In this document: positions 2,857 to 38,329 of the stretch, one piece after another
Layout: every line of letters begins with the position of its first letter
How positions within the stretch are numbered: position 1 is the stretch's first letter
IMG/VR virus record: IMGVR_UViG_2706795655_000001
Direction: 5' to 3' (one strand)
Source: a virus
Taxonomy: Duplodnaviria; Heunggongvirae; Uroviricota; Caudoviricetes; Herelleviridae
DNA length: 64,000 nucleotides
Notes under the pieces: model-generated
Database searches by the model: none
What the model was told of the DNA's origin: nothing
What the model saw: only the letters and a program-made list of their open reading frames with translations
Program-made: the position numbers and the translations under genes

Positions 2857-3071
2857 TAATCTCCAACCTCCTTATAGATGGTACCATTTTCTCCTTTAAC
2901 TACCTCGTACTCACCTTCCTTTAATTCTGTTACGCTTACTATATCATGTCTACCTTTTATACCCTTTAGTACTAGCTCTAGTTGGAAGTCCTCTAGGGGC
3001 GACGTAATACCCCTAAAGAATACTTCGTTGTTGTTTTTCGGTATGTATATAACGCTGTATATTTTCCCCAT
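2856..3071 (-). CDS. Hypothetical protein, 71 aa
   Basis: ORF tiling. Confidence 0.7.
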   Translation of the reverse strand: MGKIYSVIYIPKNNNEVFFRGITSPLEDFQLELVLKGIKGRHDIVSVTELKEGEYEVVKGENGTIYKEVGD

Positions 3072-3074
3072 AAC

Positions 3075-3260
3075 CTATAAACCTATTAAATCTTCTATGT
3101 GCCAATCCACGTCTACAGATAAGATTGTTGGTGATATCCCTAGAACCTCTGCTACGCGCACCGTTTCTTCATTAAGTAAAGTTAAGTCGCCATTCTTGAT
3201 AAATGTTTCCGCTAGTCTAATGACCTCATCACTATACCTCTTCGTTGTCGTTATTTCCAT
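3075..3260 (-). CDS. Hypothetical protein (start MEITT...)
   Basis: AAAGGAG RBS before 3260; first gene after the promoter at 3323-3352. Confidence 0.7.
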   Translation of the reverse strand: MEITTTKRYSDEVIRLAETFIKNGDLTLLNEETVRVAEVLGISPTILSVDVDWHIEDLIGL

Positions 3261-9561: not shown

Positions 9562-9583
9562 TTGTTATCTCCTCCTTGATTTA

Positions 9584-24122: not shown

Positions 24123-24356
24123 ATGGCAGTAAAAAAAGACGTAGAAGTAACCCTAATGAACGGAATGATTGCATTCATCCCCGAGGAGGCTTTCCTTACA
24201 GCAGGAATCGCAGATACACCGGAATCGGTAATCGGTAACGCTGTTCGCGGTAGTCGTTCACCAGTATTTCATGTGAACACAAAAGCAGACATGACAGGAG
24301 ATTGGTTGTACGTAATTGCACAAAATATCCTAAGTTTCAAGGTGACGCATAAATAA
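24123..24356 (+). CDS. Hypothetical protein
   Basis: AGAAAGGAAG RBS before 24123. Confidence 0.75.
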   Translation: MAVKKDVEVTLMNGMIAFIPEEAFLTAGIADTPESVIGNAVRGSRSPVFHVNTKADMTGDWLYVIAQNILSFKVTHK

Positions 24357-24374
24357 AATAAAATAGGGAATAGT
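24354..24374 (-). repeat. 21-bp motif ACTATTCCCTATTTTATTTTA, inverted copy
   Basis: Exact reverse complement of 25240-25260. Confidence 0.9.
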
Positions 24375-24406
24375 AAAAAGACCAGTCGTAAGTAGGCTGG
24401 TCTTTT
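24375..24406. terminator. Bidirectional terminator between convergent operons
   Basis: AAAAAGACCAG...CTGGTCTTTT. Confidence 0.85.
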
Positions 24407-24797
24407 AATGTACGCAGCCAGTTTCTAATTCTAGCAAGCAGCCGTGTACATAGTTCATAATGTGTACGCCTAGTATCCTTGAAAATTCTAGTCCATTTAT
24501 ATTTTCGTAGTAGTCCATCTTTTGTTCTATTGTATATTGAATAATATAGATTAATGAATCGTCTATAGGTTTACCAATAAATTCGTCTAGCGCCTCCTTT
24601 AGCTTAGTTTCTACAATGAATTTAAGTATAAAATTATTGATTGCTCTTGTAATCATTTCTTTCCTTTCCCCATTTTCTATAATACTTAGTACTGAGAAAT
24701 CAAATATCGATAATGTAAGCCTGTTGTATGTGTCTTTTCTAACGTTAACTTCTACTCCATATTTACTTATATATTCTATCTCACTAGTTACAAACAC
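24405..24797 (-). CDS. Hypothetical protein, 130 aa
   Basis: Coupled to the XRE gene. Confidence 0.7.
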   Translation of the reverse strand: MFVTSEIEYISKYGVEVNVRKDTYNRLTLSIFDFSVLSIIENGERKEMITRAINNFILKFIVETKLKEALDEFIGKPIDDSLIYIIQYTIEQKMDYYENINGLEFSRILGVHIMNYVHGCLLELETGCVH

Positions 24798-25085
24798 TTA
24801 TTTTCCCTCCACGGCTCTATTTTTCTTTTCTAATAAACCATATCGTTTTGACTCCAGTTCCCTATTTTCGTCTTCTGATAAATCTTCAAATAGTTCTCTA
24901 TAACCTACTTTGAATAAGTCCTCCAGCAACATTAACTTTTCCGGTCTAGGGAATTTAAGTCCACCTTCCCAGTTACTAACTGTTGAGAAGCTTACTCCCA
25001 ACTTATCTCCTAGTGAATATGTTGTATAACCTGCATCCATTCTATATTTTTTCAATCTCTTAGGTGTTCGTTCTTTTTTTGTCAT
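24798..25085 (-). CDS. XRE/Cro-family HTH regulator
   Basis: LKKYRMDAGYTTYSLGDKLGVSFSTVSNWEGG..FP. Confidence 0.9.
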   Translation of the reverse strand: MTKKERTPKRLKKYRMDAGYTTYSLGDKLGVSFSTVSNWEGGLKFPRPEKLMLLEDLFKVGYRELFEDLSEDENRELESKRYGLLEKKNRAVEGK

Positions 25086-25130
25086 CTTTATTTTGACACT
25101 CCTTTTCGTTTTATTTGTTGTTGTACATCT

Positions 25131-25159
25131 ACAATAGCACCTTATTTCCTAAATGTCAA
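25131..25159 (-). promoter_or_regulatory. Early promoter TTGACA-17-TATTGT for the XRE operon
   Basis: Family member. Confidence 0.7.
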
Positions 25160-25239
25160 CAACATTACCTAATTAGTTTTAAGTAAATTCTACACTACCT
25201 AGTATATCTTTTCTGAGTACAAGTTATTCCTTAAAAATA

Positions 25240-25260
25240 ACTATTCCCTATTTTATTTTA
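25240..25260 (+). repeat. 21-bp motif copy
   Basis: ACTATTCCCTATTTTATTTTA. Confidence 0.9.
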
Positions 25261-25393
25261 ACTTTTTCCTGATGAAATAGGTTTACCTTATATCTGACAA
25301 ACCTTATTATATCAAGGTTTAACTGACATATATTTAATTTTACTCTTGACTAAATGTTTTAATTTTAAATAAATAATAGGTAATATTCCTGAT

Positions 25394-25413
25394 ACTATTC
25401 CCTATTTTATTTT
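25394..25413 (+). repeat. 20-bp motif copy
   Basis: ACTATTCCCTATTTTATTTT. Confidence 0.9.
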
Positions 25414-25765
25414 TAAGGGTTCCCTATATCTATTACTGTATTTATTATTAATATTTAATTACATATATAATATTTAATATTAGTTATTTTATTTAGTTAT
25501 ATTTATTATACTCCACGTCCAAAAAATAATTAATAAAAAGACAAGTAGCTCATCAGGACAGACGAAGCCGACAGAAGCCGATTGAGCGATTCTGATGTAA
25601 TTTATCTAATAAGAAGTTAAAGACGTTGTACGAGGCTCCTAGATACCTCATATTAGATGATAAACAAGTTAAAGGCTTGTCAGGATTATACCTAAAATAA
25701 ATATTCAGAATTTTTAAAATATTTTACTTGTTAGTGTGTATTTTTCTTCAATACAGGTTATAATA

Positions 25766-25966
25766 TAGGTATAGGTTCCCCCATAACCTATCGTATCTAG
25801 TTTTCTCCTCCTCTGATTCGTGAAATCTTAGATACATGTTTTGTTAGGCATATTATCCTTCTCACTTTGAATAGGTTGATTTTTCATTCGTTTTATGTTA
25901 ACACGCTCTTAAATGAAACGGATTAGCCCTGTCTGGTATGTACGTACCGTGATGGGGCATTTTTTA
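25766..25966 (+). ncRNA. Candidate structured small RNA, about 200 nt
   Basis: Late-type promoter 25756-25765; serial hairpins with C/U-rich loops; terminal hairpin + U tract; no ORF. Confidence 0.5.
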
Positions 25967-25997
25967 TGTCCACGAAAATAGGGAGTTGCCTTATATA

Positions 25998-26053
25998 TGG
26001 TATAATAGAAGTAAGGACATTTCCAACAAAATCAACTACTTAGTACTATATTA
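25998..26053 (+). promoter_or_regulatory. Tandem late-type promoters TGGTATAATA and TACTATATTA before the head operon
   Basis: 25998-26007 and 26044-26053. Confidence 0.7.
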
Positions 26054-26073
26054 ATAAATAGGGTGTGGTTTTA

Positions 26074-26337
26074 TTGACCTCATATCAAAAAGATGAAAAA
26101 TGGAATAAAGCAAAGCAACTGTTAGCTACAGGTTTAACTTGGATTGAAGTGGTTAGTTACTACAGGCTCTTAGGTGGAACGAAAGTGAAAGTGTACTCCA
26201 TCCTAGAACGAGAGAAGTTGTTAATCATGGATATGACTGGAGATAAGAATGTAGCCTTAATAGATGCGAACGGGGAAATAGTCTATGCAAGTTATCTCGA
26301 TGTCAAGAACAGTCGCAAGGTTTTCGAATACAGATAA
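26074..26337 (+). CDS. Hypothetical protein preceding the portal
   Basis: TTG start after a GGGTG RBS; positional. Confidence 0.75.
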   Translation: MTSYQKDEKWNKAKQLLATGLTWIEVVSYYRLLGGTKVKVYSILEREKLLIMDMTGDKNVALIDANGEIVYASYLDVKNSRKVFEYR

Positions 26338-26344
26338 TTCAGAA

Positions 26345-26361
26345 TATTCCCTATTTTATTT
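26345..26361 (+). repeat. 17-bp motif copy just upstream of the portal RBS
   Basis: TATTCCCTATTTTATTT. Confidence 0.85.
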
Positions 26362-26375
26362 GAATAGAAGGTGGA

Positions 26376-28121
26376 ATGCAAATGGGATTCTGGAGTTTCC
26401 TAAAGAAAGCTCCTTCGGCAAATCCATTAGAATTATTGAATCCAGAGGACAAGCACTCTGAGATTTCTACGATGATTCGACAGATTGAAGAAGAGCAAAT
26501 TATGAAGAGTACGACAGCAGAAAAAGGTAAAGCCAAAGCTTATGAAGAACCGATATTAGGTCAATTCTCAATTAACCCTGATTACAAAGAGGCTCCGTCA
26601 AAAGATGGCAACTACAACCTGTTAGAAAATTTAAAGTTGTGGTCACGAAAGAACATCATTGTTAACGCTATCATAAACACCCGCGTTAACCAAGTTTCGA
26701 TGTTCTGTAGCCCGGCTCGATACAGTTCGAGAGGTGTAGGGTATGAGGTTCGATTAAAAGACCCATTCAAAGACCCAACTACACATGAAGAAGCTGCAAT
26801 CAAACGAATAGAAGACTTCCTTCAATATACAGGAAACATGAAGGATGACTACACGCGAGATAACTTCCGTGGATTCATTAAGAAGATTATCCGTGACCGC
26901 CTTATTTATGACAAGATTAACTTCGAATTAATCTACGATAAGCAGGGCGAACTTAATCGTTTCAAAGCGGTAGATGCTTCTACAATCTATGTAGCGGTTG
27001 ATAAAGAAGGGCGCGAACCTAAAGGTAAGGATTCCGAGAAGTTCGTACAGGTTCTAGACCGAAGGAAAGTAGCGGCATTCAAAGCGAAAGAGATGGCTTG
27101 GGAAGTTCATAACCCGCGTACCGATATTACGGTAGGTCGATATGGTTATTCCGAGCTAGAACTAGCAATGAATCACTTACAGTACCATGAGAATACAGAG
27201 CTATTCAATGCTCGTTACTTTGCTCAAGGTGGTACAACTCGTGGATTACTTCACATTAAAACTGGACAAGACCAATCGAGACATGCTTTACAGGCATTCC
27301 GTCGTGAATGGCAAACAATGTTTAGCGGTATCAATGGCGCTTGGAAGATTCCGGTTGTATCAGCAGAGGATGTTAAGTTCATCAATATGACGCAATCATC
27401 AAGAGATATGGAGTTTGAAAGATGGCTAAACTATCTAATCAACGTTTTATGTAGTATCTACGCTATCGACCCATCGGAGATTAACTTCCCGAACCGTGGC
27501 GGAGCTACCGGTAGTTCTGGTAGCACACTAAATGAAACAAGCGCAAGAGAAAAGAACCGTATCTCTCGTGACAAAGGATTAGAGCCTCTATTAAAGTTCA
27601 TTGAGGATGCAATCAATAAATACATAGTTTCACAGTTTGGTGATAAATACATATTCACATTCGTTGGTGGAGATGCACAGACAGAACGTGAAATCTTAGA
27701 AACTCTTGAATTACAATCTAAAGTCGGTCTTACATTTAATGATATCCGTAAGAAGCTTGGCTATCCTCCAGTAGAGGGCGGAGACGTAATCAACAGTGGT
27801 GTTCACGTACAAAGTCTAGGTCAAATTATGCAAGAGAAAATGATGGAGCAACAGTTTGCATTGCAGAAGCAAGAAGCAAAACAAGCGAATGCAGCAGCTA
27901 AAACCAAGACCTCCACACCAACCAAAGAGCAGTCAGAAGCACAGCAGAAAGGGATGAACGGTGACTCTAAAAACGTCAACGGTAAAGGAACCTATAACAA
28001 GACCGTAGGTAAGGATGGTCAAGTAAAAGGAGCTAAAAATACCAACGCTGCAAAGCAAGGCGGCAAAGGCAACAACGGCGAAACTGTTAATAGCGACGCT
28101 AAGAAAGGCGGTAAGAAGTAA
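26376..28121 (+). CDS. Portal protein
   Basis: NARYFAQGGTTRG, AIDPSEINFP; position before the protease. Confidence 0.93.
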   Translation: MQMGFWSFLKKAPSANPLELLNPEDKHSEISTMIRQIEEEQIMKSTTAEKGKAKAYEEPILGQFSINPDYKEAPSKDGNYNLLENLKLWSRKNIIVNAIINTRVNQVSMFCSPARYSSRGVGYEVRLKDPFKDPTTHEEAAIKRIEDFLQYTGNMKDDYTRDNFRGFIKKIIRDRLIYDKINFELIYDKQGELNRFKAVDASTIYVAVDKEGREPKGKDSEKFVQVLDRRKVAAFKAKEMAWEVHNPRTDITVGRYGYSELELAMNHLQYHENTELFNARYFAQGGTTRGLLHIKTGQDQSRHALQAFRREWQTMFSGINGAWKIPVVSAEDVKFINMTQSSRDMEFERWLNYLINVLCSIYAIDPSEINFPNRGGATGSSGSTLNETSAREKNRISRDKGLEPLLKFIEDAINKYIVSQFGDKYIFTFVGGDAQTEREILETLELQSKVGLTFNDIRKKLGYPPVEGGDVINSGVHVQSLGQIMQEKMMEQQFALQKQEAKQANAAAKTKTSTPTKEQSEAQQKGMNGDSKNVNGKGTYNKTVGKDGQVKGAKNTNAAKQGGKGNNGETVNSDAKKGGKK

Positions 28122-30077: not shown

Positions 30078-30135
30078 TCGTAGGCTCTAAAAATACGAAA
30101 AGGTAGCTTCCCTCCTCCTAAGTTACCTTTTCCAT
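30078..30135 (+). ncRNA. Candidate ~55-nt RNA or leader hairpin with anti-SD loop
   Basis: 13-bp stem 30097-30109/30120-30132, loop CCCTCCTCCT, between late motifs at 30065-30074 and 30139-30148. Confidence 0.45.
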
Positions 30136-34456: not shown

Positions 34457-34478
34457 AGTTTAGAAAGGAGGAGAAAAT

Positions 34479-35351
34479 TTGTTATCTAGTATTGATACAT
34501 ACCTATATACCCAGATAGAAAGTACTCTGGGGAATTTGTTGACGAACCGCTATATTATAGAAGAACTATTAAAAGAGGTTCAACCAACCGTAAGAGAAGC
34601 GTTTATCAAGGCTTATGTATATGACGAAAAACGTAACCCGGCTCCCTCGGAAATACCAATTGTATACACAATGCCACAAGATAAACAGATGCTTCGAGGA
34701 GCCATTTATATCGGACTTAGAGAGGGAGAAGAATCCCACACTAGTATCGGTAACCAAGAAAGCACATATGGCGCTCCATCAAGAGGATTATTATCCGAAC
34801 AATCCACAATCACAGTAGACCAAACGAACGGAAAAATGTATTTAGAGGTTAGTAAGCCTATCGCAGATGTTGATAGCGTAACGGGTATTACATTCTCCAG
34901 TGGCGAACTTGAGTATGTGGGAAATAGAATGTACTTCGATTACAATCCGGTGTTTGAAAATTTAGAACCTTTCACTGTGTGGTATGAAGCAGAATCAGAA
35001 AATCCGAATCGTAAAGACGAGTTTGGTATCCGCTCTGGTTTCACTACAACAGAATATTATTCAGTTCTAGTACTCTCTACCAACATGAATACAGTAAGGT
35101 GCCTAGATTTATTGCTTAAAGCAGTACTCATCTATATGAGAAGTACAGCAGAAGAGCATACGAACAACCTGTTACAAGGTGTAAAGTTCGGTCAAATAGA
35201 CGAAATCAAAACAGGTGACGGTGCTGATGGCTCTTCTCCAGAAATCCTATACGGACGAGAAACCATTATCAAGTACGTTACATCTTACAGTTTAGACGTT
35301 CCGATTGAAAATAAGATTAAGGAACTTTTAATAAATAGTAAATTCAATTAA
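34479..35351 (+). CDS. Tail terminator/completion-like structural protein
   Basis: Position before the sheath. Confidence 0.6.
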   Translation: MLSSIDTYLYTQIESTLGNLLTNRYIIEELLKEVQPTVREAFIKAYVYDEKRNPAPSEIPIVYTMPQDKQMLRGAIYIGLREGEESHTSIGNQESTYGAPSRGLLSEQSTITVDQTNGKMYLEVSKPIADVDSVTGITFSSGELEYVGNRMYFDYNPVFENLEPFTVWYEAESENPNRKDEFGIRSGFTTTEYYSVLVLSTNMNTVRCLDLLLKAVLIYMRSTAEEHTNNLLQGVKFGQIDEIKTGDGADGSSPEILYGRETIIKYVTSYSLDVPIENKIKELLINSKFN

Positions 35352-37868: not shown

Positions 37869-37889
37869 AAAAGTAAAGGAGGAGATAAT

Positions 37890-38042
37890 ATGAAAAGACA
37901 AGAATTAGTTAAAGAAAGGTACGAAGTTATTGATAAGCTAAAGAATAAGGAGCTTACACAGAAAGAAGAAAATTCATTAAGATTGAAGAAGTATTATTTA
38001 GAACAAGAATTAATCTATAGAAATAACCCTAGATTCACATAA
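37890..38042 (+). CDS. Small hypothetical protein (island)
   Basis: AAAGGAGGAGATAAT RBS. Confidence 0.75.
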   Translation: MKRQELVKERYEVIDKLKNKELTQKEENSLRLKKYYLEQELIYRNNPRFT

Positions 38043-38056
38043 AAGGAGGAGATAAT

Positions 38057-38329
38057 ATGAAGAAGCCAACGAAATTAGTTAAGTACATTGCGGACAAACT
38101 GTTACCAGACAACGCGAAAATTACATACTTCGATAGCCTAATCATCTATTTAGAGGATAGTTACGGATGTGAGTTCGTTATAAAGGTAGATACAACACCT
38201 CACACTATTAGAGCATTTCTATATCATTGCGACTATACTTACGATGATGAGTGTTATCTAGTACAACACGAAACATATATCAAAGGGATGACGTTTACAA
38301 TTACACAAATCAAGGAGGAATTGAAATGA
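38057..38329 (+). CDS. Hypothetical protein, 90 aa (island)
   Basis: Same 20-bp initiation region as the previous gene. Confidence 0.75.
   Translation: MKKPTKLVKYIADKLLPDNAKITYFDSLIIYLEDSYGCEFVIKVDTTPHTIRAFLYHCDYTYDDECYLVQHETYIKGMTFTITQIKEELK

Follow-up and report, generated by a model that had tools for sequence, protein, structure and literature searches.

What occupies the long ORF-free gap between the two gene clusters of this phage, and does it encode an RNA? The window, meaning the whole 64-kb stretch of DNA that was analysed, is filled from 1 to 22993 by minus-strand genes, mostly small ORFs together with the terminase large subunit. On the plus strand, the portal (PF04860), prohead protease, major head protein, tail terminator (PF23932), tail sheath and later tail genes follow in this order from 26074. 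The gap (~980 nt, 25086–26073), which extends from a divergent HTH_3 regulator gene to the portal operon, holds the candidate RNA unit. The unit has the same orientation as this operon, which begins 108 nt downstream. Segment 25100–26100 was 99.8% identical to Juglone and 99.0% identical to BigBertha, and the 1-kb stretch around the element matched 15 phage records, all of them Bacillus phages of Bequatrovirus (Herelleviridae, Bastillevirinae). The phage is lytic, with a Bacillus host of the B. cereus group.

The sequence analysis below leads us to propose that 25771–25965 (+) is a stand-alone non-coding RNA gene of ~195 nt, specific to Bequatrovirus. We put the probability that it is a real non-coding RNA gene at about 0.8, and the unit is probably a new phage sRNA gene. 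The candidate would be a C-rich-loop sRNA encoded by a lytic phage and may tune translation during infection. To our knowledge, regulatory RNAs of strictly lytic phages of Gram-positive bacteria are almost unknown. Our literature search returned nothing on non-coding RNAs of Bequatrovirus or on anti-Shine–Dalgarno (anti-SD) mimics in Bacillus phages. The word Bacillus is absent from the text of a 2025 review of phage-derived sRNAs (PMC12197685), and a term search of a review of Herelleviridae transcriptomes (PMC10383478) gave nothing usable on late promoters or non-coding RNAs of Bacillus phages.

Anatomy of the candidate RNA unit

The unit opens with a promoter region in which 8 of 71 alignment columns vary (Table 1). 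Its −10 element fits TATAATA(T/G)A, as do the promoters at 26001, 30142, 42910 and 50458. The invariant TATAATATA box resembles five −35-less promoters of the form TG(G/T)TATAATA(G/T)A, namely these four (30142 standing before a head gene) and 18902(−). An earlier note on this DNA had called the promoter late-type. The name suits its TATAAT hexamer, set in the TATAATA(T/G)A context that also precedes structural genes; it suits less well the GGT found where the five promoters have TGG or TGT, the missing T of the TG extension and the lack of a −35 box at 17 nt. A simple consensus scan flagged neither the promoter nor the terminator, because the former has no −35 box and the stem of the latter is bulged. 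Hairpin 1 starts ~7 nt downstream of the −10 hexamer, and the transcript would be expected to start at about the same point.

All structures described in the earlier note were recovered in place: ATAGGTT/AACCTAT with its CCCCCAT loop (25771–25791), GTATCTA/TAGATAC around TCTCCTCCT, the CCTTCTC tract, TTTCATT/AATGAAA, and the terminal hairpin with its U run. The CCCCC of hairpin 1 had a mean unpaired probability of 0.83, and all seven pairs of the stem were identical in 10 of 10 sequences of the RNAalifold consensus. In hairpin 2, the GTATCTA/TAGATAC stem encloses TCTCCTCCT at 25804–25812. The loop, UCUCCUCCUCUGAUUC, is 16 nt long, and its CUCCUCCUCU tract reached a mean unpaired probability of 0.79. 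The fold of hairpin 3 is less certain than that of the others; its tract was open in the consensus fold and partly paired in the single-sequence MFE structure (unpaired probability 0.35), and both of its variable stem positions allow wobble pairing (G-C/G-U and U-A/U-G). Hairpin 4 has a single variable stem position (U-G/U-A) and a loop with an unpaired probability of 0.76. Over the RNA body, the unpaired positions comprised 31 U, 18 C, 10 A and 5 G, and the loops were 77% pyrimidine. Folded alone, 25766–25966 yielded an MFE of −49.1 kcal/mol (z = −2.96), a value that none of 200 shuffles reached.

No ORF of at least 30 aa was found in the unit. The longest in 25690–25990 had 29 aa, no SD sequence preceded any short ORF, and the 5- and 8-nt indels of the alignment fall in the sole 22-aa frame that crosses the terminator. 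A minus-strand micro-ORF with AGGAGGAGA as its ribosome-binding site (RBS) was rejected, its only ATG lying 19 nt away and opening a frame of 8 aa that ends in the −10 box. Phi29 packaging RNA and 6S RNA are presumably among the families with Rfam models. The Rfam search that the earlier note had proposed came back empty: none of the 4,227 families, tRNA (RF00005) and RsaE/RoxS (RF01820) included, reached its gathering score in the window. With E values up to 10, segment 25000–26200 gave five weak, unrelated matches. RF01820, phi29 packaging RNA and 6S RNA were not among these five. ARAGORN found 0 tRNA genes in the window.

Table 1. Features of the candidate RNA unit, its surroundings and the candidates found in two related phages (window coordinates unless a locus is named).
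Feature	Position	Strand	Description
HTH_3 regulator gene, 95 aa	24798..25085	−	divergent, left border of the gap
Promoter region	25695..25765	+	near-invariant block 25709–25745, variable spacer, then GGTTATAATATA with TATAAT at 25759–25764
Hairpin 1	25771..25791	+	7-bp stem ATAGGTT/AACCTAT, loop CCCCCAU
Hairpin 2	25793..25836	+	stem GUAUCUAG/CUUAGAUAC and inner 4-bp stem; anti-SD-like UCUCCUCCUCU at 25804–25814 in the loop
Hairpin 3	25843..25881	+	RNAalifold consensus; loop contains CCUUCUC (CCTTCTC, 25858–25864)
Hairpin 4	25886..25923	+	11-bp stem, 16-nt loop with CGCUCUU
Intrinsic terminator	25927..25966	+	hairpin 25927–25960, then six U
Next transcription unit	25972..26073	+	AAAATAGGGAG motif, extended −10 promoter TGGTATAAT (25998–26006), 5' UTR of the small ORF and portal operon
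Small ORF, 87 aa	from 26074	+	right border of the gap, precedes the portal gene
AAAATAGGGA/ACTATTCCCTATTTTATTTT copies	24355–24375, 24859–24868, 25240–25259, 25394–25413, 25972–25985, 26343–26362		in the window
SIOphi (KC699836) RNA candidate	L041:736–862 (716–870 as stretch)	portal strand	~125 nt; found in this analysis
Shbh1 RNA candidate	L035:1096–1450 (1085–1450 as stretch)	portal strand	upstream of a 77-aa ORF and the portal operon

Conservation in Bequatrovirus

The window was aligned with ten relatives (11 sequences; 2,056 columns, ~2 kb), which differ by 9–15% between the more distant lineages and by 0–3% within lineages. Over the whole alignment 537 columns (26%) vary, with 31% in the HTH gene part, 34% in the small ORF, 26% in the portal gene part and 28% in the left part of the gap. 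The RNA body (25766–25925) has 11 variable columns out of 160 (7%), and no other stretch of the surrounding 2 kb is as conserved (binomial P = 4e-10, though the columns are not independent). It also holds the longest invariant run of the alignment, 81 nt at 25793–25873, which spans hairpin 2. In the terminator (25926–25966) 24 of 41 columns vary (59%); the variants include 5-nt and 8-nt deletions, and the U-run is invariant. Four of these variants were folded, and all gave stable hairpins (−19.7, −19.1, −15.8 and −18.5 kcal/mol).

Conserved structure and covariation had been named as a check in the earlier note, and the alignment answers it in part. Three terminator pairs changed on both sides according to RNAalifold, and the body stem positions that vary stay paired via wobble in 3 of 3 cases. 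Hairpins 1 and 2 showed no covariation, their sequence being invariant, and for these two the structure is given by thermodynamics alone. Wider homologue searches added no new variants. A terminator that drifts in sequence and keeps its fold, behind a body that is frozen from just after the −10 box, fits an RNA product and would be hard to explain as a DNA site. Strong purifying selection on the RNA body across the genus is supported by these alignment data.

When 50,697 phage records were searched with blastn, 15 Bequatrovirus records and no others contained the element. Thirteen of these leave it unannotated, and the remaining two are without any annotation; adding the element would improve the annotation of the Bequatrovirus records. 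Among 45 portal-homologue loci and the BigBertha locus, local blastn recovered it in 12, each from Bequatrovirus. No match to an exact 22-mer from loop 2 came up in 185,579 species genomes, and a 20-mer hit six metagenome loci, comprising four of the same phages and two chance matches.

Public metatranscriptomes were also consulted. Twenty-four soil runs contain 57–65% of the words sampled from a 9-kb stretch. The four runs examined consist of assembled contigs, up to 7.6 kb long, which run across divergent genes, coding and non-coding regions alike, and are hence uninformative on transcripts. The contig breaks, from 25940 to 25989 in one run and from 25513 to 25536 in another, were given no weight. 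Contigs that span coding and non-coding DNA suggest carried-over DNA or a widespread presence of the phage in the soil samples. Over 24300–26700, the soil contigs match the phage at 90–99% identity.

Loci upstream of the portal gene in other Bastillevirinae

Forty-five loci around portal homologues were gathered, of which 15 related ones were scanned for tRNAs and six were printed upstream of the small ORF. tRNA genes on the portal strand, upstream of the portal, occurred in 11 of the 15 related loci of other genera. Bequatrovirus has no such genes; for B4 and B5S, Table 1 of PMC4528723 lists 0 tRNAs. All six printed sister loci have a terminator and then an extended −10 sequence, TG(G/A/T)TATAAT, before the small ORF and portal, and four of the six have tRNA genes just before these. 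The window RNA and its terminator thus occupy the place of the last tRNA genes and their terminator in four sister loci, which speaks for a separate RNA gene rather than a portal leader.

Two tRNA-less relatives, SIOphi and Shbh1, have RNA candidates of their own upstream of the portal (Table 1). In SIOphi, TGTTATAATAGAG is followed by a 12-bp stem that closes a loop of 47 nt, then by another hairpin and a U-run (z = −4.46). This element is 82–100% conserved in 14 phage records; in 13 of these it is unannotated, and in one it lies under two hypothetical-protein calls. We aligned it in eight Siophivirus phages (L041 and L053–L059), in which the loop of the 5' hairpin measures 40–47 nt. The loop segments AUAUCACCUCCUUUCAU and GCCCCCUUUCUU are invariant, as is AUCACCUCCUUUC in 8 of 8 phages, and an extra 7-nt CACCUCC copy is present in four of the eight. 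In the stem, one pair is reversed from U-G to G-U, three carry compatible one-sided changes, and two are broken (in one and two sequences). Thirteen nucleotides of the loop are identical to the 3' tail of B. subtilis 16S rRNA in the form printed in PMC5427494.

The Shbh1 candidate consists of a TGTTATAATATAG box and a structured, C/U-rich stretch of ~350 nt whose tracts contain CCUCC or CCCUCCC (z = −3.19). Its only database match was the phage itself. Like the window RNA, the Siophivirus and Shbh1 candidates are located upstream of the portal on the same strand, have a −10 box of the TGTTATAATA(G/T)A type with the first hairpin a few nucleotides behind it, and expose CCUCC and CCCCC tracts; the Siophivirus candidate likewise ends in a hairpin and a U-run. 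It differs from the window RNA in its promoter, which has a −35-like TTGCTT at 18 nt, and in its loop, which copies 13 nt of the 16S tail, whereas the window RNA shares the CCUCC core alone. Neither analogue can be aligned with the window RNA, and both may be unrelated to it.

Predicted pairing with ribosome-binding sites and a possible mode of action

The earlier note had located AGGAGGAGA, the complement of the loop-2 tract, in four RBSs and had attributed these to early genes. In the window AGGAGGAGA occurs 6 times, as compared with 0.42 expected. One occurrence is the reverse complement of the RNA's own TCTCCTCCT, and the other five each lie 4–7 nt before a start codon, at 9568(−), 17944(−), 34466(+), 37877(+) and 38044(+). 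The four sites are all there; the note had overlooked the fifth, 34466–34474, which extends to the longest RBS match (12 nt) and belongs to the tail-terminator gene (PF23932) at 34479. The attribution to early genes did not survive: the genes at 37890 and 38057 are part of the tail module, between tail sheath/virion-protein genes and the tail-spike gene, and three of the five exact RBS sites serve tail, that is, structural genes. The initiation region AAGGAGGAGATAATATG is identical in two neighbouring small genes of the tail module (50 and 90 aa), at 37877–37892 and 38044–38059. This region is complementary to RNA positions 25804–25812 and 25849–25857, in an order that precludes one continuous duplex.

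Targets were searched within the 64-kb window, using heuristic gene calls that comprise 54 minus-cluster and 32 structural genes. Contrary to the claim that the RNA is aimed at early phage RBSs, the duplex energies of loop 2 with the −25 to +10 regions did not differ between the two clusters (Mann–Whitney p = 0.17). Pairing of these 54 and 32 genes to the 16S tail did not differ either (p = 0.17). For loop 1, predicted pairing was somewhat stronger in the minus cluster (p = 0.02, without correction for four tests), and GGGG-type SD regions, which would match the CCCCC loop, were found in 10 of the 54 minus-cluster genes versus 0 of the 32 structural genes (Fisher p = 0.0115, post hoc). Target prediction, as the earlier note had advised, leaves a weak hint of early-message targeting, solely for the CCCCC loop, and the timing of the minus cluster is itself assumed from gene content. 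Among exact complementary matches of at least 9 nt, the longest include a 14-mer that runs antisense to the portal gene; another match, of 13 nt (3066–3078), spans the start codon of a 71-aa minus-strand gene. Matches of 12–14 nt are about what chance predicts in 128 kb, and we name no target because exact matches of such length are expected by chance. Within the window, the sites of best complementarity include the RBS of the tail-terminator gene (12 nt) and several small genes of the minus cluster that have GGGG-type RBSs.

The anti-SD-like pentamer CCTCC is rare on the sense strand, where it occurs 0 times in the 23-kb minus cluster (1–22993; 42 antisense) versus 9 times in the 38-kb plus cluster (26065–64000). 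Dinucleotide shuffles gave 54.7 copies on both strands of the 64-kb window, or ~0.4 per kb per strand. Two of the nine plus-cluster copies lie in another non-coding hairpin. At 30096–30131 (+), a second non-coding hairpin, with the loop CCCUCCUCCU, stands between a 310-aa gene and the major-head-protein promoter and shows no differences in Bequatrovirus. Another genus (L013/L027) keeps its loop CCUCCUCCU and has G-C in place of a G-U pair of the stem. Read on the minus strand, the hairpin has AGGAGGAGG in its loop and is followed by a U-run, so that it may act from either strand.

How might such an RNA act? RoxS/RsaE (RF01820), the hairpins of S. aureus RNAIII and Listeria LhrC are C-rich-loop sRNAs of Firmicutes that pair with SD regions. 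By analogy, the exposed C/U-rich loops of the candidate (CCCCC, CUCCUCCUCU, perhaps CCUUCUC) would pair in trans with G-rich SD regions of phage and/or host mRNAs. This pairing would compete with the 3' tail of 16S rRNA and lower translation initiation, as these Firmicute sRNAs do. SD masking by the candidate RNA is plausible, and we tentatively regard it as the most likely mode of action, at somewhat less than even odds. We favour it because the layout (a stand-alone unit, hairpin 1 near the expected start, open C/U loops, a terminator) is like that of the Firmicute C-rich-loop sRNAs. What counts against it is that SD complementarity is generic and that loop 2 pairs equally with both gene clusters. 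A late repressor, in particular, would be expected to spare abundant late structural genes, and these are among the exact AGGAGGAGA sites.

The likeness to the RoxS/RsaE group lies in a stand-alone RNA with several hairpins, C-rich or UCCC-type loops and an intrinsic terminator in a low-GC Gram-positive setting, for which pairing to G-rich SD sequences would be expected. The C-rich tracts that characterize RsaE/RoxS loops are likewise exposed in the window RNA (0.83 and 0.79 predicted unpaired). Unlike that group, the window RNA matches neither its sequence nor its covariance model, has four hairpins in ~195 nt, is encoded by a strictly lytic myovirus and carries one long CUCCUCCUCU loop tract instead of CCCC alone. 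Membership in RsaE/RoxS was rejected, the RF01820 model not being matched. The C-rich-loop sRNA layout recognized in the earlier note holds in its non-coding character, promoter-like −10 box, terminator and the predicted unpaired CCCCC and CUCCUCCUCU tracts, and stops short of this family.

The phage T4 has a protein that works on the same signals: RegB is an endoribonuclease that cleaves early mRNAs at GGAG-type SD sequences. The comparison proposed here is that in both cases a lytic phage would act on mRNAs through their SD sequences and change which messages get translated. RegB is a protein nuclease, whereas here the agent would be a pairing RNA, and the CCUCC loop showed no preference for early over late messages or the reverse. 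A broader idea, which we consider unlikely, is that Bacillus phages of the Bastillevirinae encode mimics of the 16S 3' tail (13 nt in Siophivirus, CUCCUCCUCU and CCCCC in Bequatrovirus). These would serve as global SD sponges that re-rank host and phage translation, an RNA counterpart of T4 RegB that perhaps arose independently in several genera upstream of the portal operon. If the window and Siophivirus RNAs do mask SD sequences, large lytic phages would control translation with RNA besides proteins. These RNAs would also provide a simple testable system, as B. thuringiensis kurstaki supports growth of BigBertha-like phages and B. subtilis 168 is a recorded host of fHSPT3.

The main competitors differ in what the conserved hairpins would be for. 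As a cis-acting leader or attenuator, transcription from 25759 would continue past the terminator into the small ORF and portal operon, either in a certain condition or with the help of an antiterminator of the phage, and the hairpins would be a sensor or binding platform. The shared strand, the distance of 108 nt and the conservation of the block from the promoter throughout to the portal 5' UTR speak for this, as do the AAAATAGGGA motif and its complement, which stand on either side of the small ORF and might base-pair within a read-through transcript. We consider it improbable, since the conserved extended −10 promoter TGGTATAAT (25998–26006) separates the terminator from the small ORF and portal operon, and a like promoter follows the terminator in all six sister-genus loci printed, four of them with tRNA genes just upstream. 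The terminator is moreover strong (−16 to −20 kcal/mol and six U), no alternative pairing of the anti-terminator kind came to light, and Rfam gave no match to a riboswitch or leader family. A protein-binding or decoy RNA, whose pyrimidine-rich loops mimic the 16S 3' tail and titrate an RNA-binding protein, a ribosome-directed factor, or a 16S-tail nuclease or defence sensor of host or phage, appears quite unlikely as well. It would account for stems that are as invariant as the loops, as expected of a shape-specific ligand. The Siophivirus loop, with its 13-nt copy of the 16S tail and the 7-nt duplication in some phages, looks more like a tail mimic than the complement of a single mRNA, and the hairpin with the CCCUCCUCCU loop (30096–30131) is conserved across two genera. 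The gene context, however, points to no partner protein, the neighbours being the HTH_3 regulator and proteins of no known family.

The conservation could also reflect DNA, i.e. protein-binding sites or a replication or regulatory hub in a divergent control region. A 10-nt core, AAAATAGGGA, part of a ~20-nt motif, ACTATTCCCTATTTTATTTT, is present in six exact copies that are candidate operators (Table 1). All six fall within 2 kb around the HTH_3 regulator gene, with none elsewhere in the 64 kb; one abuts the portal promoter, and another separates the small ORF from the start codon of the portal gene. A similar motif is repeated in the same place in Shbh1. These copies beside an HTH regulator gene, the motif in Shbh1 and the AT-rich conserved blocks in the gap favour a DNA element. 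Yet the operator-like motifs lie outside 25766–25966, and the conserved block is bounded by a −10 box and by a hairpin and U-run with drifting sequence and kept fold, an RNA-specific pattern to which the wobble-compatible changes at all three variable body stem positions add. On balance a DNA-level element seems very unlikely. Least credible is a decaying, functionless remnant of a lost tRNA or small-RNA cluster, an idea that draws on the tRNA genes upstream of the portal in sister genera and the loss of all tRNAs in Bequatrovirus. Decay would not leave these 160 nt as the best-conserved part of the region, local blastn found no similarity to the tRNA clusters of the related loci, and ARAGORN and Rfam were negative.

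The position of the proposed RNA gene has a parallel in phage T4, whose tRNA gene cluster includes small stable RNAs to which, as far as we know, no function has been assigned. Both would be small non-tRNA RNA genes where a lytic phage keeps its tRNA genes. A spacer of ~200–285 nt was seen inside the tRNA clusters of two other Bastillevirinae contigs (L045:1548–1832 and L032:1629–1832). It contains no tRNA and no Rfam match, and could hold another small RNA.
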